From Somniosus microcephalus (taxonomy: Eukaryota): a stretch of DNA of 64,000 nt. The stretch is from positions 57,846,001-57,910,000 of the forward strand of contig CM126222.1 of NCBI GenBank assembly GCA_052327205.1, given 5' to 3'. Below, piece after piece: positions 1,626 to 57,100 of this stretch (position 1 is the first letter of the stretch; each line of letters starts with the position of its first letter). The notes beneath the pieces were generated by a model. The model saw nothing but the letters and a program-made list of their open reading frames with translations. It did not search any database and was not told where the DNA came from. The translations under genes were made by a program, and so were the position numbers.

Positions 1626-4010
1626 CATTCCTGGGATGTGGGCATCGCTGGCAAGGCCTGTATTTATTGCCCATCCCTAATTGCCCTTGAGAAGGTGGTG
1701 GTGAGCCGCCTTCTTGAACCGCTGCAGTCCGTGTGGTGAAGGTACTCCCACAGAGCTGTTAGGGAGGGAGTTCCAGGATTTTGATCCAGCGACAATGAAG
1801 GATCGGCGATATATTTCCAAATCAGGATGGTGTGTAACTTGGAGGGGCACTTGCAATGGTGGTGTTCCCATGCACCTGCTGCCCTTGTCCTTCTAGGTGG
1901 TAGAAGTCGCGGGTTTGGGAGATGCTGCTGAAGAAGCCTTGGTGAGTTGCTGCGTGCATCTTGTAGATGGTACACACTGCAGCCACGGTACGCCAGTGGT
2001 GGAGGGAGTGAATGTTTAAGGTGGTGGATGGGGTGCCAATCAAGCGGGCTGCTTTGTCCTGGATGGTGTCGAGCTTCTTGAGTGTTGTTGGAGTTGCACT
2101 CATCCAGGCAAATGGAGCGTATTCCATCACACTCCTGACTTGTGCCTTGTAGATGGTGGAAATGATTTGGGGCGTCAGGAGGTGAGACACTTGCCGCAGA
2201 ATACCCAGCCTCTGACCTGCTCTTGTAGCCACAGTACTTATGTGGCTGGTCCAGTTAAGTTTCTGGTCAATGGTGACTCCCCAAGATGTTGATGGTGGGG
2301 GATTTGGCAATGATAATGCCGTTGAATGCCATGGGGCTTGTGTGGTGCGAATGTTACTTGCCTCTTATCAGTCCAAGCCTGAATGCCATTCAGGTTTTGC
2401 TGCATTCGGGCATGGACTGCTTCATTATCTGAGGAGTTGTGAATGGAACTGAACACTGTGCAACCATCAGCGAACATCCCCACTTCTGACCTTATGATGG
2501 AGGGAAGGTCATTGATGAAGTAGCTGAAGATGGTTGGGCCTAGGACACTGCCCTGAGAAAGTCCTGCAGCAATGCTCTGGGGCGGAGATGATTGACCTCC
2601 AACAACTACAACCATCTTCCTTTGTGCTAGGTATGATCCAGCCAGTGGAGAGTTTTCCCCCTGATTCCCATTGACTTCAGTTTTACTAGGGCTCCTTGAT
2701 GCCACACTCGGTCAAATGCTGCCTTGATGCCAAGGGCAGTCACTTTCACCTCACCTCTGGAATTCAGCTCTTTTGTCCGTGTTTGGACCAAGGCTGTAAT
2801 GAGGTCTGGAGCCGAGTGGTCCTGGCGGAACCCAAAACTGAGCATCAGTGAGCAGGTTATTGGTGAGTAAATGCCGCTTGATAGCACTGTCAACGACATC
2901 TTCCATCACTTTGCTGATGATTGAGAGTAGACTTATGGGGCGGTTATTGGCCGGATTGGATTTGACCTGCTTTTTGTGGACAGGACATACCTGGGCAGTT
3001 TTCCACATTGTCGGGTAGATGCCAGTGTTGTAGTTGTGCTGGAACATCTTGGTTAGAGGTGCGGCTAGTTCTGGAGCACAAGTCTCCAGCACGACAGCCG
3101 GGATGTTGTCGGGGCCCATAGCCTTTGCTGTATCCAGTGTGTGCTCAGCCGTTTCTTGATATCACATGGAGTCAATCAAATTGGCTGAAGAATGGCTTCT
3201 GTGATGGTGGGGACCTCAGATGGTGGCTGATATGAATCATCCACTCGGCACTTCTGGCTGAAGATGGTTGCAAATGCGTCTTGTCTTTGGCACTTGCGTG
3301 CTGGACTCCGCCATCAGAGTCACAGGGTCACAGAAACGCCACAGTGCAGATAGAGGCCATTTCGGCCCATCGAGCCTGCACCGACACATATCCCACCCGA
3401 TCCCCGTAACCCCTACACCGACACATATCCCACCCTATCCCCGTAACCCCACGTATTTAATCCCCCTAACACTAAGGGTCAATTTATGATAGCCAATCAA
3501 CCTAACCCGCACATCTTTGGACTGTGGGAGGAAACCGGAGCACCCGGAGGAAACCCACGCAAACACGGGGAGAATGTGCAAACTCCACACAGACAGTCGC
3601 CCGAGGCCGGATTTGAACCTGGGTCCCTGGCGCTGTGAGGCAACAGTGCTAACCACTATGCCATCATTGAGGATGGGGAAATTCATGGAGCCTTCTTCTC
3701 CGATTAGTTGTTTAATCATCCACCACCATTCACGACTGGATGTGGCAGGACTGCAGAGCTTTGATCTGATGTGTTGATTGTGGAATCGCTTAGCTCTGTC
3801 TATAGCATGCTGCTTCCGCTGTTTAACATGCATGGAGTCCCGTGTTGCAGCTTCCCCAGGCTTTTTCCCACTGGCAAGACAGACCCAGGAGTGGCGGCAC
3901 AGTGGTATACAGTCGGGAGGGAGTGGCCCTGGGAGTCCTCAACATTGACTCCGCACCCCATGAAGTCTCATGGCTTCAGGTCAAGCACGGTCAAGGAAAC
4001 CCCCTGCTGA
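1626..4010 (-). mobile_element. Decayed CR1/L2-group LINE (RT and C-terminus on minus strand; inverted endonuclease piece ~3865..4010)
   Basis: Frameshifted RT peptides GPDNIP...ELAAPL, RPISLLSIISKVME, QGSVLGPTIF...INDL...MFAD, IYKAQVRSVMEY; flanking TTAAAAT repeat. Confidence 0.9.
3317..3664 (-). mobile_element. HE1-like V-SINE inserted in the LINE
   Basis: tRNA-like head, V-domain GGGTTTCCTCCGGGTGCTCCGGTTTCCTCCCACA, CR1-type tail; GCCATCA on both flanks. Confidence 0.88.
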
Positions 4011-4857
4011 TTAAAATTAATGGATGGACAGCCATGGCTGCGGACAAGGACGGTGTTTGCTGTGGAAAGATTCAGTTTGGGGCCCCTACATTTTACTAGA
4101 CAACGATACTAACTATATCGGCTTAATCTGGTGTCACATCAACAAATGAGAAGAGAAAAAGATTCTCTCGAAGGGTCTCGACCCAAAACATTAATCTGCC
4201 TCTTCAAATACTAACCAAGTCACTGCACAAATTCCAGCATTCGTTGGTTGGACTGCAAAGAGTTGAATTCTACCCAGCCGAGGGAGGGGGAAAATTCCTC
4301 ACAGCTTGTGGGCTACTCCCTACCCATAACTCTCCTCACACTTGCAGGAATGAATCTCATTCCATGTTAGTGATTGCAAATTATGAATGAGAGGAGAAGG
4401 ATGGGAGAGCAGTGCACTGATAACTCAGCACCTGCATCCCTCCAGCGCGGAGCCAGGATGTGAGCAGCATGTCCAATTTGGAATGCAGTATGTTTACATT
4501 TCATACGCGGATTGATGGCGGCTCCTACTCACAGGTGAGTCTGTCGGCGGAGGCGAAGAGTTACCGGGTGGCGAGCCAGTCGATCCTCAGCACTTAACCC
4601 GGTGTCTCCGCTGATCGGAAGCCGCAGATCCGCATGGGACCCCGTCCAATTGCATGGGTTGCATGGCTACTGGCCTGAGATTTCCTGACCTGTGTTCCCT
4701 GGCAGCAGCTGATCTTGGAAACTATCCTACAGTGCGCAAAGGATAACCAGCATAAACCTGGAATTCTTCTTTAAAAATCCAGCATGCTTATAACTCTTTC
4801 GAATGATACTGTGGTACATTTTTAACCAATTAATAAATAATTCCATTTACTTTGCAG

Positions 4858-4956
4858 ATGTGGCAGTGCCACTTCACCGTGGAGTGTGGAGTTGACGACT
4901 GGACTGCTGAGTGGAGAGATGTTACAAGAAATGACCTCATGAAAAGAATACAGGAG
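4858..4956 (+). CDS. RNF213: RNF213 exon (window exon 1) MWQCHFTVECGVDDWTAEWRDVTRNDLMKRIQE
   Basis: tttgcag acceptor, GAG|gtat donor, phase 0/0; only open frame. Confidence 0.8.
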
Positions 4957-5399
4957 GTATATACATATATAACGAGACCAGCCCTTTTGGGTATTTTGAT
5001 TTAATGGTTTTGGGCAGAGTTTTTGTCACATATTTACATAAATTAACCACTGACTTGCCAACACATAATAGCCAGCAAAACTACAGATTAGCAGCTTACC
5101 TTTATGAAATCTGCATCCGAATGAGCCGATACCCTCAGAAGCCGCCACAACCCTGATTTAAAATCTATTTGTAAAAGGGACATTAAGTGTAAAATGAGCG
5201 TAAGACCCCCCTCCTGAACTGCAGCGTCACATCACGGACTGAGAGTACGGCCTGTGGCAGGGGGATAGTTTTTGAAGGGCCTCTTTGAAGGCGGACAGAG
5301 CGTTTTCACTATTTCAGGTGCGAGCTTCCATCAGCTCTGTGCAGTTACCAAGAGAAACTAAAACAGTAACTACCCCTTCAGCTCACAAACAATGATATT

Positions 5400-5500
5400 T
5401 CAGAAATAGAAACAGGAAATGATGGAAACCCTCAGCAGGCCAGGGCAGCATCTGTGGAGAGAGAAAGAGTCAATGTTTCAGGTCGATGACCTTTCATTAT
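5400..5500 (-). mobile_element. Penelope-like terminal repeat fragment (degenerate hammerhead)
   Basis: Same sequence family as 8396..8535 and 49394..49492. Confidence 0.7.
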
Positions 5501-5586
5501 ATTTCAGGTTGTGTTCATAAAGATACCAGCATTTTATAAATGTGGTTATACATTTCATTTATTTTTTTGTTGTATTTCATTTATAG

Positions 5587-5709
5587 GAAAACCCCTCTGA
5601 CCAAATAGTGATCTACTGGAATGAGATGGAAAATTTAACTGCCTTAAATCCCATTCTTCTGGATTGTTTTGAGACCTGTGCACTTAATGCTGTAGAGGAA
5701 GTTTGCCAG
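5587..5709 (+). CDS. RNF213: RNF213 exon 2 ENPSDQIVIY...CFETCALNAVEEVCQ
   Basis: ttatag acceptor, CAG|gtaaga donor, phase 0/0. Confidence 0.88.
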
Positions 5710-6001
5710 GTAAGAGAAAATACCAAAAGAAAGCATTTATCCCCGAATGGCCATACTTGATAATGTACACTTTGGGGTATTAAAGCTATTGTCCAGGTAA
5801 CTGTATATCCATATATCTGGGAGTTTCCCACACAGTGCAATAGTCAGCAAACCCTTGGTTTCATTGACATTTTCTGGTGTTTGTTGCCAATAGCCAACTC
5901 TTGTTTGATGTGGAGGTAAAAAAAGAAAAGCCAGGAATCTGAATTAAATAATGACAATTCTGAGACTGCACAGCAGATTGACCAGCTCTAGAAAAAGATA
6001 A

Positions 6002-6679
6002 GGGGGGAAAAACTCGGTGGCGCCCCCTTTGGGGCGCTAACATCGCCAGGGTGCTAACTTTAGCGCCCCGAAAAAGTTATTACCCCTTGCGCCATAAACT
6101 CAGTAGTAGCGTCCCAAGCAGGGGGCGCGGCGCTACTGGAGGCGCTCCCCCTCCTTCTTGGGGCGCTACCAGTGAATTTCATGGTGTTACGTGCAACAAC
6201 GCCACGCGCGTCAGCACGTAGCACCGCATCATTGCAGGCCTCCCTCCCCTGCGCGTACCGGGCCCTGCTAGACCACCGGGGAGCGGGGTGCTGTGAAAAC
6301 AGCCTGGCACTCAAGAGGTGTGCCGGGCTGAGCGATCGCGGCCGGCACCCCGAAGAACAAATGGGAAGGGGGCAGGTGCTGGCAGCCGACCAAAATAAAA
6401 ATGGCCGCCCGACACCTGCCCTTTAAGTAGCGCCGCCGCGGCTGCAAAAACGCCACCCTGACCCTGTCGGGCATATCGCCGGCGATAGGTCAGGGGGGCG
6501 CAACGTCATCGATGACGTCATTGCCGGCGGCGCCACGGGGCGCTACTGGCTTATGCCGCCGCTAACCTCCCACTGAATTTCGCGGGAGGCATTAGCGCCG
6601 CCGCACCCGGGCGCAAGGGGATTTGTGCCCCCACGGGGGGCGCTAACAAGAGGTGCAAATCAACCTAATTTTTCCCCCC
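6002..6679. mobile_element. GC-rich MITE, PIF/Harbinger-like (family shared with 26604 and 46585)
   Basis: TIR GGGGGAAAAA...TTTTTCCCCC; internal TAGCGCCCC repeats; homologous to the 46585..47181 copy. Confidence 0.82.
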
Positions 6680-6834
6680 AAGTTAATATTTCAAGTGGGA
6701 CCTTTCATCAGAACTGCTACTGTTAGGCTGGAGAAACCTCTTTGAAAGGACTGGTACGGTGGCAGATGTAGTTCACCCCTCAAAGCTAACACCCCAAAAT
6801 GACGGACGAGTTCTTTAATAACAAGCAAAAGGGC

Positions 6835-7022
6835 TTCTGCTGTAGTCGCATGTGTATTGTAAGTGGACTTGCGTCGGCTATGTTATTGGGTACATTCTGC
6901 TGTAATAGAGCGTGTAACATGAATGGACTTGTAGATGGCTAAGTTATAGCGTTCATTCTGCTGTAAGAGTGCATATATTGTAGATGGACATGTACATGGC
7001 TATATTATAGAGTTAATTCTGC
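6835..7022. repeat. Degenerate tandem repeat, about 3 x 60-61 bp
   Basis: ttctgc recurs at 6835, 6895, 6956 and 7017 with shared tggac..g...ggcta motifs. Confidence 0.8.
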
Positions 7023-7411
7023 AAATCTGTGCACTCAGTGAGGAAGCCTCACTGACACGGAGCCTGGGTTGAAAATGCAGCTACAACATTACAGCCCTGA
7101 TTCTTCACCTCCGCCCCCGCCCCAACGCTCACTGCTCCTCGCTGAGAGTGTGAGATTGCAGAATTTACCCTTGTGTATATTTATATATATAAGCGAAAGA
7201 AGTGAATATGGGAAAATGAAGGTACAGATAGGTGCAGTGATGACCTTTAATTAGTTGGCAGTAGTCATAATTTTACACACACATACTAAAAAGGGAGCAT
7301 GTGGTTTAGATTTGGGTGTGAATTATATTTGTGAAATAACTAGACTTGCTGTGTTCAGGTGCACTGTGAAAATTGATCTTTTTAAATGTCTTACTTTCTG
7401 CTAAATTTTAG

Positions 7412-7586
7412 AGTAAAAAGGAAGCAGAACTGCTTACAAAGTTACGCGCATGGGAGAACCAAAAACCTGCAAAGGTTTTATCAAAACTGATCGAAGAATC
7501 CTGGAAAAGAATGCAGGGGAGCAATATCAGCAGTGTCGGCTGTGTACTGAGTTCAGATTGTGCCATACACTATTGTCTTCTGCAAG
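7412..7586 (+). CDS. RNF213: RNF213 exon 3 SKKEAELL...LSKLIEESW...HYCLLQ
   Basis: ttttag acceptor, AAG|gtaacc donor, phase 0/1. Confidence 0.85.
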
Positions 7587-7684
7587 GTAACCAGCTGGTG
7601 TAAATTTGGTTTACTTGTAACTGGTATGAGTACAAGACTCTATATAGAGCTGGGGGGTGGTGGGACTGACTGGATTGCTGTGCA

Positions 7685-7970
7685 TAGAAACATAGAAGAT
7701 AGGAGCAGGAGTAGGCCATTCGGCCCCTCGAGCCTGTTCTGCCATTTAATGAGATCATGGCTGATCATCCAAATTCAGTACCCTGTCCCTGCTTTCTCCC
7801 CATATCCCCTGATCCCTTTAGTCTTAAGAAATCTATCTAACTCCTTCTTGAATATATTTAATAAGCCGGCCTCAACGGCCTTCTGTGGTAGAGAATTCCA
7901 CAGGTTTACCACTCTCTGGGTAAAGAAATTCCTCCTCACCTCTGTCCTAAACGGCTTACCCCTTATCCTT
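7685..7970 (-). mobile_element. CR1 (HER1-like) 3' fragment nested in an opposite-strand CR1 tail (~7655..8035)
   Basis: Near-identical reverse complement of 40390..40672. Confidence 0.85.
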
Positions 7971-8395
7971 AGAGGAGCCGGCGTGGACTTGATGGGCCGA
8001 ATGGCTTCCTTCTGTGCCGTTATGACTTTATGACTTCGTTAATATGTGGATTGGGTTCACAAATTAGCCGTAGTTCTTGGACTGTAGTTCAGCTCCATTG
8101 TCGACCTTGGTCAACCCTCAGTTCGGTGAAGTTTGAAAATGAATCTGAGCGAAGTTACCACTCTGCCCTCTAGTGATTTTTCCCCCCCAAATATCACTTC
8201 TCTGAATCCCAGAACATTCCCTTGGATTTCCGTCCAATGCTACATGTTGCTACAGCATTGAGTAAATTTCAACAAGTTGTGTTCTCATGTTTTTTTGAAT
8301 GATTCTGGTGTAATTATTTACTCATGAATGCGTCAAATTGTAGTTGTGTGTCACTTCAGTCAGGAAATAACTGTGGCCAACGTAAAGTTTTTGTA

Positions 8396-9519
8396 CAAAA
8401 GCAAAATACTGCGGATGCTGGAAATCTGAAACAAAAACGGAAAATGCTGGAAACATTCAACAGGTCAGGCAACATCTGTGGAGAGAGAAACAGAGTTAAC
8501 GTTTCAGGTCAATGACCCTTCGTTAGAACTGGAAAAAGCTGGAGATGGAACAGGTTTTTAAGCAGGTGTGGGGGCAGGGAAAGGGGGGAGGGGAGGAAAG
8601 AACAAAAGGGAAGGTCTGTGATAGGGTGGAAGGCAGGAGAGATTAAATGACAAAAGGGATGATGGTGCAAGGCAAAAGGAGATGGTAATGGGACAGGTTA
8701 AGAAACATAGAAGATAGGAGCAGGAGTAGGCCATTCGGCCCTTCGAGCCTGCTCCGCCATTCAACGAGATCATGGCTGATCATCCAAACCCTAGCACCCG
8801 GTCCCTATACCGACAGCCATCCCACCCAAGCCCTATCCCCGTAACCCCGTAACCCCACGTATTTAATCCCCCCAACACTAAGGGCCAATTTTTTTATCAT
8901 GGCCAATCAACCTAACCCGCACATCTTTGGACTGTGGGAGGAAACCGGAGCACCCGGAGGAAACCCACGCAAACACGGGGAGAATGTGCAAACTCCACAC
9001 AGACAGTCACCCGAGGCCGGATTCGAACCCGGGTCCCTGGCGCTGTGAGGCATGAGATCATGGCTGACCATCCAAATTCAGTACCCGGTCCCTGCTTTCT
9101 CCCCATATCCCTTGATCCCTTTAGCCTTAAGAAATATATCTAACTCCTTCTTGAATATATTTAATGAATTGGCCTCAACTGCCTTCTGTGGTAGAGAATT
9201 CCACAGATTCACCACTCTCTGGGTGAAGAAAAGATGAGTCTAGATGAGGTGTAAATGGCAATGGCAGAATCATCAACAGCTGCCATGTGAGAGAGAAAAG
9301 AAAATATAGGGGTCAGGATTATAGTCTGAAATTGTTGAACTCGATGTTGAGTCCAGAAGGTTGTAAAGTGCCTAATCGAAAGATAAGGTGCTGTTCCTCG
9401 AGCTTACATTGAGCTTCGTTGGAACAGTGTAAAAGGCCGAGGATGGTGAGTTCAGAGTGGGAGTGGAGCGGAGAATTAAAGTCACTGCTGAGTGTTGCCA
9501 GCATTTTCTGTTTTTGTTA
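8396..9519 (-). mobile_element. Penelope-like element 3' part with nested SINE/CR1 insert (8703..9230) and an inverted terminal piece (9485..9519)
   Basis: C-terminal peptide KLEEQHLIFRLGTLQPSGLNIEFNNF; hammerhead-like motif 8494..8531; 12-bp TSD AAAGTTTTTGTA (8384, 9520). Confidence 0.8.
8703..9052 (-). mobile_element. HE1-like V-SINE, 5'-truncated, fused to a CR1 3' fragment (9053..9230)
   Basis: V-domain and CR1-derived tail as in the other copies. Confidence 0.85.
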
Positions 9520-11115: not shown

Positions 11116-11283
11116 GTGACTGCAGTAAACTTGATGTCTCACAAGAAGCAAGAGGTTTACTAAAAGATGCTGAGAACAGTTTTCACATGCTGGTTGAATG
11201 CCTCTATAATGGCACTGTGAAGGTTGCTGATCTGCAGTTGCTCCTCAGGAAAAGAAAGGAATACACCGCTTTACTTCAAGCAC
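11116..11283 (+). CDS. RNF213: RNF213 exon 4 DCSKLDVSQEARGLL...YTALLQA
   Basis: ctccag acceptor, CAC|gtaagt donor, phase 1/1. Confidence 0.85.
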
Positions 11284-11882
11284 GTAAGTGTGATATAATA
11301 CAAGATTGCACGATTAACTCTGTCACAACACTGGCTTTATTAATATATACGCACACAGCATCGATCCATGCCCTTAGCGGTTACAGTGCAGTACAGCTTT
11401 CGATCTGCGTATTCTCCTGACTCACATACAGAAAATGTGGTGGAAGAATCACTTACACAGAAAAAGTGGCACTCCTGCTCCTCCGGGCCCCACAAAGAGA
11501 AATGTATTTGCTTACCATTTGGGTGTTGGGAAGGTAGTCACTCCAGCTAATAGGCCATTAGAATTGCCTCAGGGTCCTATCAGAGCGACAGGACCCCGAT
11601 TCGCATATGGCAGACACCTCGACTGCCCCGCGCTAAAATTGCCGCAGGCCAGTATCAGAATGGGAAAAGGAGCTGCTTGATTGTAGCACCCATTCCGTCT
11701 GGTTTCTGCTGGGTGGAGGGAGTTGAAATCCTTCCCTTTGTGTGTCTTTCAAACTAAGAAGTTGCTACTTCAAGATGTCCTTTGCAAACTACAGCCAATA
11801 CATTCCAACATTCTGATTCAACGCAGGGTAACTTAATCTTAGTCTAGTCTGAGGCTGCTGCTGGCCAACAATGTATTACAAT

Positions 11883-12369
11883 ACGATAGCAAAAGCTCGA
11901 GGAACAGCACCTCATCTTCCGATTAGGCACTTTACAGTCTTCCGGACTCAATATCGAGTTCAACAATTTCAGATCATAACCTCGGCCCCTATTATATTTT
12001 TATATATTTTTTATTCACACCTTTGGTTTGTGCCTTTTCCCTTTTTTTCTCTCCCACATGGCAGCTGTCTCTCTGCCAGCACATTTTGCACTTCATCTAG
12101 AGCCGTCTTTTGTCTCTTTACCTGTCCTATTACCACCTCGTCTCGTCTTGAATATCTCGTAATGTCTCTTCACCTCTCAGACTTTCCCCTTTGTTCTTTC
12201 ATCCCCTCCCCCATTTCCCAGCCCCCAAACCAGCCTTTTTATCTGTTTCATTTCCTGCTTTTTTTTCTCAGTTCTGAAGAAGGGTTTCGACCTGAAACGT
12301 TGACTCTGTTTCTCTCTCCACGGATGTTGCCTGACCTGCTGAGTTTTTCCAGCGTCTTCTGTTGCTATC
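11883..12369 (+). mobile_element. Penelope-like element 3' part with hammerhead-containing terminal repeat
   Basis: KLEEQHLIFRLGTLQSSGLNIEFNNFR coding remnant; 12-bp TSD ATGTATTACAAT (11871, 12370). Confidence 0.8.
12270..12305 (+). ncRNA. Minimal type I hammerhead ribozyme motif, intact core, sense to the RNF213 pre-mRNA
   Basis: AGTT-CTGAAGA-A-GGGT-TTCG-ACCT-GAAA-CGTT-GACT: CUGANGA and GAAA cores, helix II with UUCG loop, palindromic ACGU helix III, helix I AGUU/GACU. Confidence 0.75.
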
Positions 12370-12544
12370 ATGTATTACAATTATCAGCAACACTGTGTTT
12401 ATTAGCTATAGTGTCGATGCAGCAATGTGCCTGCCCAACTGCACGCTTCACTCATTCCAATCCAGCTTCAACCCCTTTTTGCCCTGTAGAAGGGGCCTGA
12501 ATTCTATTGCAGTGATAAACTGATGGCGTGTGCTTGATTTACAG

Positions 12545-12703
12545 AACAGAAACACCCAGCCCATCAGAAGACGAGATCCTTTCAAGTTCATGCTGAAAAT
12601 CTGCTGTCAAGGAGAGAAGAAGAACTTAAAGCCTTTCTGAATGAGAAAAGTGCCATCGGAACACTAATAAATATGATTAAGAAAATTCATGAAACTATTA
12701 CAG
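12545..12703 (+). CDS. RNF213: RNF213 exon 5 QKHPAH...LLSRREEELKAF...IHETIT
   Basis: ttacag acceptor, CAG|gtacag donor, phase 1/1. Confidence 0.85.
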
Positions 12704-13009
12704 GTACAGTATTGATCAAACTTCCCTTTCTGAAGATGGTGCACGTGTTATTTGAGAAGCTGATCGACAAAGGAGAGACTACAGATCAGGGAATTCTCAG
12801 TAATTGTTTATTTATTTAACGTAACGTGAATCTTTCAAACAAAAGGTTTTTTTTAACCTAAACTTGTAAGCACGTTTGGACACAATATGGGAATAATTAC
12901 CACAGTTTGAAGCAGGAATAATCTGCATTGCCACTCACTATAATACCTTCTCACACGCCACAAACTCTGATATATACACATATTGTTTTGAATGAATAAA
13001 GAAAATATT

Positions 13010-17993: not shown

Positions 17994-18140
17994 AGAGATT
18001 CAGCTCGTTATTTGGAGTGGCTGAAAACCTTGAGGGAAAGTCATGGATCTGTAGAAACTTCCGCCCTGTCTCTCGCAGCAGCCATCAATAACAAAGGAAT
18101 GTATACAGTGGGCAACTTTGAACAACTGCATGAAGAAAAG
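17994..18140 (+). CDS. RNF213: RNF213 exon 9 RDSARYLEWLK...HGSVE...LHEEK
   Basis: ctttag acceptor, AAG|gtactt donor, phase 0/0. Confidence 0.92.
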
Positions 18141-18212
18141 GTACTTGCATCTGAACAGAGGGTTAGTAAAACCAGGTGTAAGAAGGAAGCTGTGGTGATG
18201 CTTCAACTGTGG

Positions 18213-20671
18213 TAGGGTGAGGTTGGTTAGGTGGTCCTAGGGTGGGGTTGGGTTAGGTGGTTCGAGGGTGAGGTTGGGTTAGGTGGTTCGAGGGTGAGGT
18301 TGGGTTAGGTGGTTCTAGGGTGAGGTTGGGTTAGGTGGTTCGAGGGTGAGGTTGGGTTAGGTGGTTCGAGGGTGAGGTTGGTTAGGTGGTCCTAGGGTGA
18401 GGTTGGGTTAGGTGGTTCGAGGGTGAGGTTGGTTAGGTGGTTCGAGGGTGAGGTTGGGTTAGGTGGTTCGAGGGTGAGGTTGGGTTAGGTGGTTCGAGGG
18501 TGAGGTTGGTTAGGTGGTCCTAGTGTGAGGTTGGTTAGGTGGTTCGAGGGTGAGGTTGGGTTAGGTGGTTCGAGGGTGAGGTTGGGTTAGGTGGTCCTAG
18601 GGTGAGGTTGGTTAGGTGGTTCTAGGGTGAGGTTGGGTTACGTGGTTCTAGGGTGAGGTTGGGTTAGGTGGTTCTAGGGTGAGGTTGGGTTAGGTGGTTC
18701 GAGGGTGAGGTTGGGTTAGGTGGTTCTAGGGTGAGGTTGGTTAGGTGGTCCTAGGGTGAGGTTGGGTTAGGTGGTTCTAGGGTGAGGTTGGGTTAGGTGG
18801 TTCGAGGGTGAGGTTGGGTTAGGTGGTTCTAGGGTGAGGTTGGTTAGGTGGTTCGAGGGTGAGGTTGGGTTAGGTGGTTCTAGGGTGAGGTTGGGTTAGG
18901 TGGTCCTAGGGTGAGGTTGGGTTAGGTGGTTCGAGGGTGAGGTTGGGTTAGGTGGTTCGAGGGTGAGGTTGGGTTAGGTGGTTCGAGGGTGAGGTTGGGT
19001 TAGGTGGTTCTAGGGTGAGGTTGGATTAGGTGGTTCGAGGGTGAGGTTGGGTTAGGTGGTTCGAGGGTGAGGTTGGGTTAGGTGGTTCTAGGGTGAGGTT
19101 GGGTTAGGTGGTCCTAGGGTGAGGTTGGGTTTGGTGGTTCTAGGGTGAGGTTGGGTTAGGTGGTTCTAGGGTGAGGTTGGGTTAGGTGGTCCTAGGGTGA
19201 GGTTGGGTTTGGTGGTTCTAGGGTGAGGTTGGGTTAGGTGGTTCTAGGGTGAGGTTCGGCTTTGTGGTTCTAGGGTGAGGTTGGGTTAGGTGGTTCTAGG
19301 TTGAGGTTGGGTTAGGTGGTTCGAGGGTGAGGTTGGGTTAGGTGGTTCGAGGGTGAGGTTGGGTTAGGTGGTCCTAGGGTGAGGTTGGGTTAGGTGGTTC
19401 GAGGGTGAGGTTGGGTTAGGTGGTTCTAGGGTGAGGTTGGGTTAGGTGGTCCTAGGGTGAGGTTGGGTTTGGTGGTTCTAGGGTGAGGTTGGGTTAGGTG
19501 GTTCTAGGGTGAGGTTGGGTTAGGTGGTCCTAGGGTGAGGTTGGGTTTGGTGGTTCTAGGGTGAGGTTGGGTTAGGTGGTTCTAGGGTGAGGTTCGGCTT
19601 TGTGGTTCTAGGGTGAGGTTGGGTTAGGTGGTTCTAGGTTGAGGTTGGGTTAGGTGGTTCGAGGGTGAGGTTGGGTTAGGTGGTTCGAGGGTGAGGTTGG
19701 GTTAGGTGGTCCTAGGGTGAGGTTGGGTTAGGTGGTTCGAGGGTGAGGTTGGGTTAGGTGGCTCGAGGGTGAGGTTGGGTTAGGTGGTCCTAGGGTGAGG
19801 TTGGGTTAGGTGGGTCTAGGGTGAGGTTGGGTTAGGTGGTTCGAGGGTGAGGTTGGGTTAGGTGGTTCGAGGGTGAGGTTGGGTTAGGTGGTTCTAGGGT
19901 GAGGTTGGGTTAGGTGGTTCGAGGGTGAGGTTGGGTTAGGTGGTCCTAGGGTGAGGTTGGGTTGGGTGGTTCTAGGGTGAGGTTGGGTTAGGTGGTTCTA
20001 GGGTGAGGTTGGGTTAGGTGGTTCGATGGTGAGGTTGGGTTAGGTGGTTCGAGGGTGAGGTTGGGTTAGGTGGTTCGAGGGTGAGGTTCGGTTAGGTGGT
20101 TCGAGGGTGAGGTTGGGTTAGGTGGTTCTAGGGTGAGGTTGGATTAGGTGGTTCGAGGGTGAGGTTGGGTTAGGTGGTTCGAGGGTGAGGTTGGGTTAGG
20201 TGGTTCGAGGGTGAGGTTGGGTTAGGTGGTTCGAGGGTGAGGTTGGGTTAGGTGGTTCTAGGGTGAGGTTGGGTTAGGTGGTTCGAGGGTGAGGTTGGGT
20301 TACGTGGTTCGAGGGTGAGGTTGGGTTAGGTGGTTCTAGGTTGAGGTTGGGTTAGGTGGTTCGAGGGTGAGGTTGGGTTACGTGGTTCGAGGGTGAGGTT
20401 GGGTTAGGTGGTTCTAGGTTGAGGTTGGGTTAGGTGGTTCGAGGGTGAGGTTGGGTTAGTTGGTTCTAGGGTGAGATTGGGTTAGGTGGTTCGAGGGTGA
20501 GGTTGGGTTAGGTGGTTCTAGGGTGAGGTTGGGTTAGGTGGTTCGAGGGTGAGGTTGGGTTAGGTGGTTCGAGGGTGAGGTTGGGTTAGGTGGTTCGAGG
20601 GTGAGGTTGGGTTAGGTGGTTCGAGGGTGAGGTTGGGTTAGGTGGTTCGAGGGTGAGGTTGGGTTTGGTGG
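18213..20671 (+). repeat. G-rich minisatellite, 26-bp unit (G/T)AGGGTGAGGTTGGGTTAGGTGGT(T/C)C, about 95 copies
   Basis: Directly visible; some 25-bp variant units. Confidence 0.97.
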
Positions 20672-21864: not shown

Positions 21865-22489
21865 CACTGTGTGATGATGCAGACATGTCCAACTAAAACA
21901 CAACCAACAGCTGACCACTGATACAGCCTCAACAACCTGACAACTCAAAAACATAGTATTACATAGAAATGTTAACATGGAAGAATGCCATTCAGCCCAA
22001 CCAGCCTGTTTTGGTATTCATCCCCCACACGAGCAGTAGTCCTAATTCCCATATGCCCACCTTGTTCCCATATTCCTTTATTTCCCTTTCCTTCAACCAC
22101 TGCTCTAACCTAATCTTAAATGTTGAATTGGTCTCTGCAGGTGAGTATACTCGTCAGGAACTCACAAGTATTTTATATACCCTCACTTGTTCACCATAAT
22201 GAAGGGGACTCACAGCGAATAATTGAAATTGGCAGTTAATTCAGAGTCTCCCGTTTTGCCATTTAAATAAAAAAGATAATTTGTCTGACTGCTGACAGCC
22301 TTGATTCCTGCTGCTGCTTATGGAAAATACTTGTGTTACTTTTCCCCCACAATGACATCATTAGAGGAATTAATGGCTCAGAATAGGGCTGACTAGAGGC
22401 AGCATTCACTATCAGTGGACTTACTTTTGTGGGTGATTTCAATATTTTGAAGTCTCCTGCTCTGCATCACATAAAAGGAGGTAGATAAC

Positions 22490-23255
22490 TTAAGGTGATC
22501 GGCAAAAGAACCAGAGACGACGTGAGGGAAAACTTTTTTATGCAACGAGTGGTTAGGATTTGGAATGCACTGCCTTGTGCCTGGGGTGGTGGAAAAAGAT
22601 TCAATACAGGTAGACTATCCTTTATCCGAAAACCTCGGGACCAGCCGTGTTTCGGTTTTCAGAGAATTCCGGATTTCGGAAGGTGGGTCGGCGGGGGGTC
22701 GTGTGCACGAATTACGCTGACGCTCAGCGTAAGTCGGCGGGGGTCGGGGTCGGCGGGGGTCGGGGCCGGCGGGGGTCGGCGGGGGTCGGGGCCGGTGGGG
22801 GTCCGCGGGGGGGTCGTGCGCACGACTTACGCTGACGCTCAGCGTAAGTCGGCGGGGGTCAGGGTCGGCGGGGGTCGGGGCCGGCGGGGGGGTCGGCGGG
22901 GGTCGGGGCCGGCGGGGGTCCGCGGGGGTCGGGGCTGGCGGGGGTCCGCGGGGGGGTCCGCGGGGGTCGGGGCCGGCGGGGGATCGTGCGCACGACTTAC
23001 ACTGGACTTACGCTGAACGAAAAAACCTTCGGTTTTTAGAGGGTTTCGGTTTTCGGAAGTTCGGATAAAGGGTAGTCTACCTGTAGTAGTTTTCAAAAGG
23101 GAATCGGATAAATACTTGAAGAAGAAAAAATTGCAGGGATATGGGGAAAGAGCAGGAGAAGTGGGACTAACTGGATTGCTCTTCGAAAGCCAGTGCAGAC
23201 TCGATGGGCCAAATGGCCTCCTTCTGTGCTGTACTGTTCTATGATTCTATGATGA
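22490..23255 (+). mobile_element. CR1 3' fragment interrupted by a MITE
   Basis: RENFFMQRVVRIWNALP; resumes at 23084; ATTCTATG tail. Confidence 0.8.
22607..23083. mobile_element. Tigger-like MITE with G-rich CpG-dense core
   Basis: TA|CAGGTAGACTATCCTTTATCCGAA...TTCGGATAAAGGGTAGTCTACCTG|TA. Confidence 0.88.
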
Positions 23256-23650: not shown

Positions 23651-24494
23651 GTGAAAAAAAGTATTAAATAAAAGCATTTGCAAAATAGCTTGTCTTTAAT
23701 GTCTAAATCAAACCTTAAAACTAATTTATTGAGGCAAAGAGAATTTATTTTTGCTCAATAATTCAAATAACCAGCCTAGCTTGTTGGACTAAATGAGGAA
23801 AGACAGCTCAAAGCAATTTATGCCCACCTATTTAAAGAGAGGCTCTTACCCTTTTCCTGGGCGTACTGGATCAACTGGACACAGCAAATGCAGGAAAATC
23901 AGGCTCACACTCACCCATAAGAGAGCTGACTCGATTTTCCTGTTTACTTGTCTTCATGCCACCCAGGTGATCCAGCGCGCCAAGGCGCAGGACCAGGACA
24001 ATCATCCCAACACCCGTTAACCCAGAGTGTTTCAATGATCAGACTATCCATGTGTATAAATGCAGCTCCTTCAGGCTGACTGGCATAGTAACTCAATGAA
24101 GCTTCTTCGCCAGCACTGTTCCAGCACTCAACTGTTTTTAATATATAACATTTGCAGCAGTGGACATAAGAAAGAAAAGTACAAAAAAGTGACTGGTAAT
24201 TGTTTACAATCATTTGATATTTCAAAGGAAACTGATGGCAAGACTCTTTTAGTGTGTAAAATGTCTGTATAAACAGCTTCTTCAGTTAGTAATGCACTGT
24301 TTTTTTCAAAGTAACATCACGTTAGAGCACCAATCATGATTAGAAATTTGTACAGCATTTAAATAGTTATTACATTTTTATTGCACTTCTAGCAGTGCAT
24401 TTAAATAACCTAAGCCCTAAATTCTCTGCTGCAAGTTCAGCTAAGGCAATTTATTTTAATATTTATATTCTTGAACACATTTTATTTCCCACAG

Positions 24495-26004
24495 AATTTT
24501 AACAATGTCCAGAGGCTCGGAAAGACATTCATTGAATTGTACTCATCTGGAAACATGCTTTACAGAAACTGGGAGGCACGAGTGCTCTGCAGTAAAGAGA
24601 GTGATGTCTGCCTAAAAATGGACTTTAATGTCAAAGAAATTGGACATCTAGAAATAGGTGGAGATGTCACCGAGCAGCTACAAGTATTGTGCAGAGCACT
24701 GGAGACGTGCCTTCAGGACTGGTGCGAGTTTATTGAGAAGAGACGAGCGCAGTTCTACTATCTGAATTACTATACAGCAGAACAGATTGTGTATCTGTGC
24801 TCAGAACTGGGAGGCTTTGTTGCTGGGAAGCCTTTGTGTGAGCAGGTGATGACAATGCTGTCATTCATTAAACCTGACTGCACTGCGAAGGATATCAGAA
24901 GTGCGATGCCTCAGCTATTTATATTGAATGAGAATTCCGAAGATGAGGAGCTTTTTATATTGAATGAGAATTCCAAAGATGAGGAGCTTTTTATATTGAA
25001 TGAGAATTCCGAAGATGAGGAGATAGGTGACTTCGTGCTGGGAGCTGGGGAGAGTGAAAGTGAGAGTGAAGAGGTTGATGTGGATTTGAGAGACTTTCCT
25101 CTACTTATTGCAAGTTCACTAGGGTACAGTCCAGAAAGAGCTAATATTCGGACATCTACTCAGAGCCATGATGAGGAAGGTGATAATGAATTAATAGAGT
25201 TCCAGTATGTTGAGCCTGCTGAATTCCAATGGTCAGAGCCTGCCCCGTTCCAACATATTGAGCCTGCAGAGTCAGTATGTGAGGAAATGCATGATGCTGG
25301 CATATCAAAGATGTTTTCCCAAATAGAAAATGCAAGTTTTTCTGAGCAGATTACACTCCTCTGGAACAAATTTATGCAAAACATGACTGCTTTCTTAATT
25401 GACCATTTAGATATATTCGCTTTTGGCGACTTACTTAGCTGTCTCTCGGTTAAGAATGAGACAACAGTAAGGAGACAGCTTCCTCCCTCTCTGCATCACG
25501 GAAAACCGAATCTCATAGTCTGTGCACAGCCCGAGATCTTTAGGGCTGCTTTATATGTCTACATGCAAAATCAAGAGCAGCCTCTGCCGACCTATGATGA
25601 AGTTCTCTTGTGCTCCGAGGAAACGACTTATGAAGAAGTCGAACTGTTTTTACGGCGGGCTTTGAGCAGAGGGTCTCGCGAACAGAAAATCCATACACTA
25701 ATACATGCCGATTGCCTGAGTTATGAAACGAGCGTCCGATTTGGAGAATTGTTTGAGGAATTGATGCGTCACTGTAATCCAGAATATCAGTTTGTTGTCA
25801 TCTGTGATGCTAAGCGCCAGCACTGCTACATCCCATCATATCTCAGTTATTACAAAGTACCTGTAGGGCTGAATATTAAAACAGAAGCCATTCAGCAGTA
25901 CCTGGTAGATCATTTCACTGTCCCTTTGGGGCAGGACTCTGCAGCTCAGGTGTTCCATGACCGGCTTTCTGTCAGAATTGTATCGTCAAAAAGTCCTGGC
26001 GTGG
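24495..26004 (+). CDS. RNF213: RNF213 exon 11 (1,510 bp): end of stalk, acidic insertion, start of AAA ring
   Basis: ORF 24471..26234; ccacag acceptor, TGG|gtaggt donor, phase 0/1; peptides FYYLNYYTAEQIVYL and PLPTYDEVLLC. Confidence 0.95.
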
Positions 26005-26046
26005 GTAGGTACCAAAGTCTGTACTTTTTACCTTTGTATTCTAGTA

Positions 26047-26354
26047 CAGGAAACTCTTTTTTATCCGGCACCGACGGGACCAGCGTGGTGCCGGTTTATC
26101 AAAAAGTCCGGATTACAGAGAGGTATAGTAAAAGGTACGAGAGCCCCGCACACGGCCACAGATCCAGGCATCCCTGTTGCATGGCAACAGGTGCAGGAAC
26201 CCCGGCCACAGATCCAGGCATCCCTGTTGCATAGCAACAGGTGCAGGAACCCCGGTTACACGGCCACAGATGCAGGAACGGCCACTAATATGAAGTAAAA
26301 CTTACCTGAACCTACTCCTGCATTTTGCCGGTTAACAGAGATTTCCGGCTATTT
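26047..26354 (+). mobile_element. Tigger-like MITE (15506 family), right end truncated
   Basis: TA|CAGGAAACTCT start; internal repeat units; right TIR missing. Confidence 0.85.
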
Positions 26355-43409: not shown

Positions 43410-43977
43410 CATGACCTGCAGTCCAGCGTATTGAAATGGCCCTATACCTACCAACTGATGTGAGCCTACCAGCCCAAGAGGCTCATACCAGCAGGTGGTT
43501 GGAAGCGGGGGGGGAAATAAATTGGCAATCCCCCTATATAAATGAAAAACGCACTTACACTATGTCTCTATGTATTATTTGTAGCAGGCATTAAACTGGT
43601 TAATTTAAAACCTGGTAAATTCCTGGGTAAAAAATAATACACATTGGAGTGGTAGTATGAGAACATTAAGCAATTGTAATGTATGTACCTTTAAGGGGGA
43701 GAACTACTTTTTACAGCTCATGTATACTGTAGTACCGGCAGTGACCACACCTGTATATAACGTTGAGTAGTAATCTGTACAGTTCAGTTGCAGTCTGAGC
43801 CACGTTGAGTAAACACCGTTTGTACCGTTCTCCGCAGTCTGTGTCTGATTATACACGGACGTAACAGCATCTGTATGTGAAGTTAGCTGAATGGAAAATC
43901 TACCCCACAGTGTGTGCATTGCCAGTCGCACTCCCTGCCGACAGTGGGTGCTCCAGTTCCTTGTAAGATTTAAAATT

Positions 43978-44111
43978 AAAACAGAAAATGCTGGAAATAC
44001 TCAGCAGGTCAGGCAGCCTCTGTAGAGAGAGAAACAGAGTTAACGTTAACTCTGTTTCTCTCTCCACAGAGGCTGCCTGACCTGCTGAGTATTTCCAGCA
44101 ATTTCTGTTTT
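43978..44111. repeat. 134-bp spacerless palindrome made of Penelope-like terminal repeat
   Basis: 67-bp arms with 2 mismatches, centre GTTAAC|GTTAAC. Confidence 0.92.
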
Positions 44112-44526
44112 TATTTCAGACTTCCGGCATCCGCGGTGTTTTGCTTTTGTATTAGCCTTGTACGATTTAGTTCAGTGCTGCACACGGGTAAGGACGTAGA
44201 AGGCTCATGATGCAGAAGGTGCTTTGTTACACATATATCCCTCCCTTGTGAACCAGACAGTGCACCGGATATGGTGTACGGATGAGGGCGTGTGCTCAGC
44301 TCACAAACATGCAGACAAGGAGTTGCGCTGCACTGGCTCCGGTGTGAACTGAATGGTGCTCTACCTGAATGTGAACACATTGCACAATGTGGGGACTCTT
44401 GACTCAACAGATTATGAAATATGGAACTGTGTACTTGGAAACACAACATAGAGTTGATTTCACATGAAACAGCACCAGTTTTTATATGTTACATCCACAT
44501 TATTTTTCTTTGTACTGATAATGTAG

Positions 44527-49393: not shown

Positions 49394-49902
49394 AAAACAG
49401 AAAATGCTGGAGAAACTCAGCAGGTCAGGCAGCATCTGTGAAGAGAGAAGCAAAGTTAACGTTTCAGGTCGATGACCTTTCGTCAGAACTGGAAAAAAGC
49501 AGGAAATGGAACAGATTTTTAAGCAAGTGAAGGGGCTGGGAAAGGGGGGAGGGGATGAAAGAACAAAAGGGAAGGTCTGTGATAGGATAGAAGGCAGGAG
49601 AGGTTAAGAGTCATTAAGAGATATTCAAGGCAAAAGGAGATGATAATAGAATGGGTTAAGAAACAAAGGATGGCTCTAGGTGGAGTGTAAATTGTGCTGG
49701 CAGAGTGAAAGACAGCTGCCATGTGGGGGAGAAGAAAAAAAGACACAGACAAAAAGTGTGAATACAAAATATTTATATATATATGATGATAGGGGCCGAG
49801 ATTATGATCTGAAATTGTTGAACTCTATGTTGAGTCCAGAAGGCTGTAAAGTGCCTAATCGAAAGATGAGGTGCTGTTCCTCGAGCTTCCGCTGAGCTTC
49901 CG
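49394..49902 (-). mobile_element. Penelope-like element 3' part
   Basis: QRKLEEQHLIFRLGTLQPSGLNIEFNNFRS; terminal repeat with hammerhead. Confidence 0.8.
49454..49490 (-). ncRNA. Minimal type I hammerhead ribozyme motif, intact core, antisense to RNF213
   Basis: Reverse complement: AGTT-CTGACGA-A-AGGTC-ATC-GACCT-GAAA-CGTT-AACT. Confidence 0.75.
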
Positions 49903-50876: not shown

Positions 50877-51239
50877 GTGAGTCTTATGAAAATAATACAA
50901 AATGTTTAAAGCTTATGAAGAATTTGATAGTAAAATGCAAGGTTCTTCAAACTGTCATTTTACTGACAAGACAGATCCATTTTGTTTTATCCTTCAGTCA
51001 TTCAGTCTATCCTCACTTTGACAGTATAATATATATATATTTCTGTTATTCAATTAAAGACTGTCCTTGTATCATGCTTAACATGCACATTTTGCAATTC
51101 TGTGATTCTGATTCTCAGTGCTACCTGACACTCAAATCTGCTGGTTGTATTTCTGATGACGTAACTCCATTCTTGGAGAGCAGAGTGTAATGAGAGTACA
51201 ATAGCAAAATACTGCGGATGCTGGAAATCTGAAATAACA

Positions 51240-51327
51240 ACAGAAAATGCTGGAAACACTCAGCAGGCCAGGCAGCATCCGTGGAGAGATGCTGCCTGGC
51301 CTGCTGAGTGTTTCCAGCATTTTCTGT
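51240..51327. repeat. Perfect 40-bp-arm inverted repeat (8-nt spacer), Penelope terminal-repeat derived
   Basis: ACAGAAAATGCTGG...GCAGCATC and its reverse complement; flanking direct repeat TGTAATGAGAGTA. Confidence 0.9.
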
Positions 51328-56376: not shown

Positions 56377-57100
56377 GTAAATTTGACTCATAAGTACGCA
56401 TTTATTGCCTAATCTCATGTAGTTCTTGCAAATAATTGCGTTGCTGGGTGTTAAAGTGCCATTTTTGGCCAGCGGCTCTATCCAATTTGCCTTTGTTCTT
56501 TGAATTAGTGCTTGGCATCTGTTACACGGTGCTGTGCACTGATGCTGCAACACACAATGCCACAACACTGCCCAAACACAGAGAATGTTAATGGGCCTAA
56601 AGTGTTCATCTAAAAGAAATAGACCCTGAAGATATATTATAGCGCCTTGGCAGCCAATGCAGTAAAGTCAAACGTCAACTCAAATTTCTCTCCACGGATG
56701 TTGCCTGACCTGCTGAGTTTTTCCAGCATTTTCTGTTGTTATTGCAGTAAAGTGCTTCTCTACCAACCAGCAGATGGCGGGGTCAAATTTTGTGTTGTCT
56801 GGAACTCGAGACTGAAGGACTCAGTTGGGATGAGTTTTTGATGAGAGGATTTATATATTGTCATTTAGAAGTTTCCCATGCTTTGCTGAACCCCGAACAG
56901 AGAGAAATTCTACACTAGAAGAGAAAAAATACTAAGCGTGGCTGCTCGCTTGAATCATGCCAAACACAAAATGCCAATTCTGCAGCCTGGGCCAATCTCT
57001 CCTTTCGGAAGAGAATGCAGGATAGCAAGCGGGGGTGCAGTGAGAAAGCCATGAATATTACAATGTCTCAGTATTTTCTTGCTGTGTTGTTCTACCTCAG

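Follow-up and report, generated by a model that had tools for sequence, protein, structure and literature searches.

The motif at positions 12270–12305 of the window (the whole 64,000-nt stretch of Somniosus microcephalus DNA analysed here) is a minimal hammerhead ribozyme at the pseudo-LTR (pLTR) end of a 5′-truncated Penelope-like element (PLE) inserted in an intron of RNF213. Our studies make it very probable, as a joint claim, that the ribozyme works in the tandem transcript of the element, that selection acts on master copies, and that splicing removes the intronic copy without its being cut. Taken alone, the 12270 copy matters little, since PLE stubs of this class, known since 2014, number in the tens of thousands. 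Its family offers a nested lineage with three natural core variants, each present in hundreds to thousands of copies, which makes the need of retrotransposition for cleavage testable in vitro. Cleavage of host pre-mRNA, if true, would represent a new way for a retrotransposon to influence host gene output.

The CUGANGA and GAAA cores and the NUH site that characterize minimal hammerheads (min-HHRs) are all present in the window sequence at 12270–12305 on the plus strand (Table 1). The preliminary description had reported the CUGAAGA and GAAA cores, a UUCG-capped helix II, the ACGU helix III and the AGUU/GACU helix I, all of which were confirmed at their positions, and its predicted cut behind GUU at 12301 agrees with the triplet at 12299–12301; its helix layout stood as well, except for the omission of the unpaired A12281. 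This A, located between A9 and 10.1, is an invariant column in a 12-row alignment of family copies, as is the ACGU palindrome (15.2–16.2; 12/12 rows). The helix II closing pair (10.1–11.1) is G·U in the 12270 copy and varies among family rows (GU in six, GC in four and AU in one of 11). Its loop reads U(UUCG)A rather than C(UUCG)G, which is the extra-stable form of this tetraloop. Across the 12 rows, 98.3% of stem cells are paired while loop II changes in both sequence and length, although a covariation test on 12 hand-picked rows was not significant against shuffles (51/500). The pattern CTGANGAN{8,25}GAAACGTH matched twice in the window (12274 on the plus strand and 49486 on the minus strand) versus 0.03 matches expected, and none of 100 shuffles gave at least two matches to the loose core pattern. 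An Rfam scan of the window at E ≤ 1 returned nine matches, none of them to a hammerhead model; these miRNA and scaRNA matches fell under their gathering scores and were rejected, and five of the nine, on the inverted tail pair at 44042, are spurious miRNA matches caused by that pair.

The hammerhead forms the end part of a 487-nt insertion (11883–12369), and its assignment as a PLE-type minimal type I motif, already made in the earlier account, is supported by its pLTR position, the ORF tail, the target-site duplication (TSD) and tandem relatives. The ORF tail is 93% identical to the ORF C-terminus of a longer relative, locus L009 (tblastn, E 9e-11), and the ATG at 12324 lies 22 nt past the predicted cut, with 46 nt of ORF kept. 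The 12270 copy ends in a short 3′ class, without the approximately 30-nt tail extension: in a set of 120 well-scoring matches, which contains some duplicates and is biased to loci chosen for intact cores, 59 stop between +95 and +114 relative to C3, and 52 reach the model end at about +124. Two other candidate explanations were rejected. Inversions do not pile up at the cut site, as only 24 junctions at the helix III palindrome of the kind found at 43973–44151 occur genome-wide and 4 of the 120 ends start at +20 or more from C3. Nor is the hammerhead conserved as coding sequence, as reading frames through it vary among subfamilies, one of them with a stop.

Table 1. Features of the PLE insertion, its hammerhead, the host intron and other family copies in the window.
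Feature	Position	Strand	Basis or remark
Left TSD, 12 bp, AT-rich	11871–11882	+	12-mer exactly twice in window
Inverted PLE tail tip, 12 nt, at 5′ junction	11883–11894	-	Reverse complement matches subfamily copies at their long-tail end
Last 28 codons and stop of PLE ORF (GIY-YIG endonuclease C-terminus)	11893–11979	+	Translation; tblastn
Non-coding pLTR body, 290 nt, pyrimidine-rich	11980–12269	+	92–96% to subfamily copies; tree
Polypyrimidine tract and CAG, splice-acceptor-like, overlapping helix I	12256–12271	+	Present in three subfamily sets
Minimal type I hammerhead	12270–12305	+	Pattern match, 12-row alignment
Helix I 5′ strand AGUU	12270–12273	+	Window sequence
Core box CUGAAGA	12274–12280	+	Window sequence
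Unpaired additional A	12281	+	Window sequence; min-HHR hallmark
Helix II GGGU / UUCG loop / ACCU	12282–12285 / UUCG / 12290–12293	+	Window sequence
Core box GAAA	12294–12297	+	Window sequence
Helix III palindrome ACGU, loopless	12297–12300	+	Window sequence
Cleavage triplet GUU	12299–12301	+	Predicted cut 12301/12302
Helix I 3′ strand GACU	12302–12305	+	Window sequence
Start of next ORF unit, 64 nt; ATG at 12324	12306–12369	+	Tandem copies L211, L223, L024
Right TSD	12370–12381	+	Second of two window occurrences of 12-mer
Predicted RNF213 intron with insertion	11284–12544	+	GT/AG, frame continuity, RNF213 matches
Flanking RNF213 exons	11116–11283 and 12545–12703	+	In-frame join
Decayed copy	~4170	+	Different variant
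Decayed copy	5470	-	Without CUGA
Copy with G5A core, split by other repeats	8394–9426	-	Antisense
Head-to-head inverted tail pair joined at helix III palindrome, coreless	43973–44151	.
Second intact-core copy	49396–49888 (core 49486–49458)	-	Antisense to RNF213; pattern match

The insertion lies in RNF213, which is encoded on the plus strand (matches with E 0 and 5e-17). Exon 11116–11283 matches RNF213 weakly (E 0.33), yet at the collinear position, and the acceptor at 12545, which lies 240 nt beyond 12305, is in frame with the donor at 11284. The RNF213 matches and the frame uphold the earlier placement of the motif on the sense strand of an RNF213 intron, 240 nt upstream of this acceptor. 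Since 11116–11283 joins 12545 in frame, we discarded a different candidate for the upstream exon, with its end at 11827, and a PDB search with exon 12547–12705 alone gave no RNF213 match. Elsewhere in the gene, the long exon 24414–26234 encodes an acidic insertion as well as a short, acidic repeat in three units (ELFILNENS...), and introns hold a strongly GT-skewed simple repeat (18001–20000) and a GC-rich tandem-like repeat (22489–23246). In one near-identical organism, contigs enter the repeat from either flank at the RNF213 site, and the insertion is therefore likely to be shared with it; a second organism compared, at the 95% identity level, gave no unique-flank coverage of the site.

The other window copies previously listed were recovered with the same states (G5A at 8494, decay at 5470 and ~4170, an intact antisense core at 49454), and the copies at 8494 and 5470 proved to be antisense as well. 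A second head-to-head inverted tail pair lies at 51197–51327, an older hammerhead-like copy with AUAU replacing ACGU lies at 6711 on the minus strand, and the sequence at 56670–56750 belongs to the lineage with the changed 3–8 pair described below. Family density is very uneven: neither pLTR ends nor ORF pieces of the family were found in the preceding 60 kb (−60000 to 0), versus about 10 in the window.

Relatives of the 12270 copy carry a single ORF that encodes KPADRGG and YIDD motifs, a CX4CX2C linker and then a GIY-YIG domain, i.e. a reverse transcriptase (RT) followed by a C-terminal endonuclease, of which the 12270 copy retains only the last 28 codons. Locus L211 has an 807-aa open stretch with YIDD and YIGET motifs, and the linker of L009 and L216 reads CKRRRCNTC, in agreement with the CX2-5CxxC form common to Neptune and Nematis. 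Because the Pfam scores of these relatives fall under the curated cut-offs (RVT_1, E 0.0035, 17.5 bits vs 29.6; GIY-YIG, E 0.0036, 18 bits vs 22.6), the PLE assignment rests on motifs and architecture. Direct partial tandems were found at 3 of the 25 long loci examined (L211, L223 and L024), and in these the upstream hammerhead leads on into the ORF; L211 has same-strand cores at C1:53705414 and 53708590, 3,176 nt apart, around an ORF for the RT, Cys linker and GIY-YIG domain. Such partial tandems (pLTRs), inverted 5′-truncated copies, a one-sided tail of 30–40 nt and a 12-bp TSD at AT-rich DNA are all traits of endonuclease-bearing (EN+) PLEs, and the element is likely to be of Neptune type, as judged from its sequence. 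At L216 (G000:C1:25329000–25338000), the PLE is flanked by a gag-like frame and a 551-codon open frame, the latter of which we take to resemble an envelope/fusion-type protein.

The earlier expectation of a large ribozyme-bearing repeat family was borne out. In the 6.45-Gb genome, a strict pattern with a 5-bp helix II matched 17,442 copies, two more patterns matched 5,085 and 1,978, and reversed-pattern controls matched none; these three non-overlapping strict patterns thus represent more than 24,000 copies. The exact 12270 variant is found 562 times, and the copy shares 92–96% identity, across as many as 473 nt, with 30 sister copies, among which it nests in the tree. The core is intact, as had been stated, but it is inherited from a subfamily with 562 exact copies, and its intactness thus reflects no more than a divergence of approximately 5% from sister copies. 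Single core changes genome-wide affect G5 in 253 cases and G12 in 141, versus 12,265 intact cores; since a tail-G control gave 616, a number inflated by slippage at the pattern edge, these changes are not commoner than in the control and there is no sign of broken cores being favoured.

Descendants of the 12270 subfamily changed the catalytic 3–8 pair in the order C-G, U-A, U·G. In a midpoint-rooted tree of 57 of 99 copies (those keeping the ORF end), with both 3–8 positions masked, all 36 U3 copies form one clade (100/100) inside the C-G subfamily of the 12270 copy, and all 18 U·G copies form one clade (100/100) within the U-A copies, a nesting that sets this order. Among the first 100 listed of the 5,085 matches, the pair is U·G in 85, U-A in 14, C-G in one and C·A in none, and among the first 100 listed of the 1,978 matches, where the pattern fixes A8, it is U-A in 99 and C·A in one; extrapolation from these listed matches yields an estimated ~2,700 U-A and ~4,300 U·G copies. 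The U-A and U·G lineages have GUC as their cleavage triplet, and the U·G lineage is the most homogeneous sampled, with 97.9% tail identity. Separately, the loci L079, L081, L140, L165 and L179 represent a distinct related repeat, in near-identical copies with a common non-canonical core (A9, GAAA box), the sequences of which suggest that their lineage may have spread without a working ribozyme.

The size of the U·G lineage makes it plausible that even the element can do without catalysis by its hammerhead, which would be a relic or a structural or protein-binding motif conserved for its fold or for binding and not for cleavage. This reading, which is independent of the host question, we consider possible, if doubtful. 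The catalytic pair is a U3·G8 wobble in the most homogeneous lineage sampled, hammerhead mutants of an Anolis PLE were not impaired in insertion in vitro (PMC11167929), and Naiad PLEs are described without hammerheads (PMC8557442). Conversely, the 3–8 positions are paired in every lineage, with the C3·A8 mismatch almost absent from the listed matches, and U3-A8 is a known active covariant (PMC3088659), a core covariation also reported for the Cercyon element of S. mansoni (PMC4209133).

We favour a role in the element's own tandem transcript. There, two motifs might pair through their ACGU palindromes, or the PLE protein might chaperone the fold, and a cut behind GUU or GUC would release one unit length of RNA that begins with a leader of 22 nt; selection would act on active masters rather than on inserted copies. 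The loopless helix III cannot close within a single monomer, and the dimer dependence proposed in the preliminary description fits this architecture. Folding predictions gave helices I and II of the isolated 36-mer a probability of 0.04, with a minimum free energy structure that is not a hammerhead (z +0.81), and in contexts of 101–487 nt the probability of the hammerhead helices was at most 0.006 (0.6%) per pair; the dimer hammerhead and help from protein lie outside what folding and cofolding programs can draw.

By comparison, it is very unlikely that host pre-mRNAs are cleaved by this copy and by thousands of similar ones, whether in cis, as trans-dimers or when PLE protein is expressed, and thereby alter splicing or yield. 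The preliminary description had proposed such cutting in cis or by trans-dimerisation, and the proposal found no support. In its favour, the 12270 copy has an intact core and intact helices I and II, an Anolis PLE motif is activated by its protein (PMC11167929), and retrozymes are reported to be under-represented in Xenopus introns (bioRxiv 10.64898/2026.07.22.740005). Against this, a structural scan that admitted C-G, U-A and U·G cores found a single sense-strand core in the 184 kb around the site, that of the 12270 copy itself, and two antisense cores, so that there is no nearby cis partner. The ACGU duplex, computed at only −1.7 kcal/mol, is a further point against it. Family transcripts are abundant in the RNA runs described below, so that trans partners exist in principle. 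Published single min-HHRs showed no detectable cleavage and dimers little (PMC4209133), and the Anolis motif, which was cleaved only with PLE protein, was dispensable for insertion and had no RNA-seq ends at its site; moreover, the Anolis protein required 172 nt of ORF on its RNA versus the 46 nt past the ATG here, albeit in a different clade (PMC11167929).

The distribution of copies in genes points the same way. Depletion of intact cores on sense strands, which had been suggested as a check, was not seen in sampled gene bodies, where intact cores were 5 sense to 3 antisense (4:2 excluding the window), a comparison of low power (95% CI of the sense share, 0.24–0.91). These gene bodies, which cover 1,154 kb and bear gene names that are our presumption, took their orientation from clusters of LDLa or Sushi exons on the same strand, with the window added, and contain 62 pLTR ends divided equally between sense and antisense (31:31), including 16:14 with broken cores and 10:14 without cores; insertions without an inverted partner were 16:17. 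A further 110 kb at C1:96.84–97.10 Mb (three matches, all sense, one intact) may be intergenic and was excluded from the strand count. Two raw RNA runs, of which ~24% and ~31% were read and whose species label is the same as the best DNA match, contained thousands of family reads in both orientations, a point in favour of host cleavage insofar as family RNA is plentiful. RNF213 depth was 0 at the upstream exon and <1x at the downstream exon, and near-zero coverage means that these runs say nothing on this locus; none of the five begin/end pile-ups listed falls at the cut, which in standard RNA-seq is a weak test. Exons can remain tethered across an intronic cleavage.

Any host effect might instead arise through a built-in acceptor at 12271/12272, which would give a premature stop rather than cleavage, although we regard this as improbable. 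The polypyrimidine tract and CAG are kept across subfamily sets, their position equals the end of the Penelope intron of D. virilis (PMC4209133), and in-silico splicing from RNF213 into this acceptor gives a stop after 10 codons. However, copies with the acceptor show no depletion in the sense orientation (9 sense to 7 antisense), and no read joint into 12272 was found among the joints listed (12 others stand outside the list, and RNF213 coverage is near zero). The acceptor-like signal at 12256–12271 overlaps helix I, as at the D. virilis intron end, and a matching donor was not located.

We propose that the lone copy, which lacks a partner in cis and keeps little of the start of the ORF, would leave the host pre-mRNA by splicing and without being cut, and that it is likely a silent passenger. 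A bolder extension, in which PLE protein would activate thousands of intronic minimal hammerheads, that of RNF213 included, as a retrotransposon-gated cutter of host pre-mRNA, and the C-G to U-A to U·G series would record a ribozyme turned down in the active element, is to our minds highly improbable.

Among known systems, the domesticated intronic hammerheads of amniotes (RECK, HH9/HH10; PMC6155905) are similarly of type I, intronic or PLE-derived. In contrast to their monomer-competent folds with canonical helices and tertiary loops and their deep orthologous conservation, the 12270 copy is a young single PLE fragment with ORF sequence, and an assignment to the RECK/HH9 type was rejected in view of its loopless helix III, its unfavoured fold, the ~5% distance from sister copies and an orthologous site in one near-identical organism only. 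Non-LTR retrozymes form non-coding tandem arrays, each unit of which has a hammerhead (bioRxiv 10.64898/2026.07.22.740005), unlike the single unit with ORF sequence found here, and were likewise rejected, there being no second sense core in 184 kb. A literature search, beyond which lay the supplements of PMC4209133 and of this 2026 preprint (one chondrichthyan), found no paper on shark PLE hammerheads and no U3·G8 PLE lineage.

Poseidon_Ac (PAc) of Anolis carolinensis (Frangieh et al. 2024, PMC11167929) resembles the present element in having its hammerhead at the pLTR-ORF junction, a tail overlapping the ORF start, two 3′ end classes ~30 nt apart and an AT-rich target with ATT. Its start codon lies inside the hammerhead, 26 nt before the cut, whereas the ATG here is 22 nt after the predicted cut, and the CX4CX2C linker of Neptune/Nematis distinguishes our element from PAc. 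The Neptune clade, EN+ PLEs described with an RT then a C-terminal GIY-YIG domain, a CX2-5CxxC linker and a hammerhead in the pLTR (Craig et al. 2021, PMC8557442), shares all of these features and also the partial tandems, inverted 5′-truncated copies and one-sided tail, the placement here being by linker and architecture. The min-HHRs of metazoan PLEs, those of the fish elements Xena, Poseidon and Neptune among them (Cervera and de la Pena 2014, PMC4209133), are likewise of type I, with a loopless helix III, a palindromic 15.2–16.2, an extra nucleotide between A9 and 10.1, a 4-bp helix I and a pLTR location, and occur mostly as single truncated copies in many subfamilies. Helix II is 4–5 bp here versus 7–8 bp in S. 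mansoni, and in the 12270 copy it is closed by G10.1·U11.1 rather than the "highly conserved" G10.1-C11.1; a U3·G8 lineage of large size is not known to be described in that paper, and copy number here exceeds 24,000, versus 4,000–9,000 for coelacanth and Xenopus. The 12270 hammerhead is a further member of the class described in 2014.
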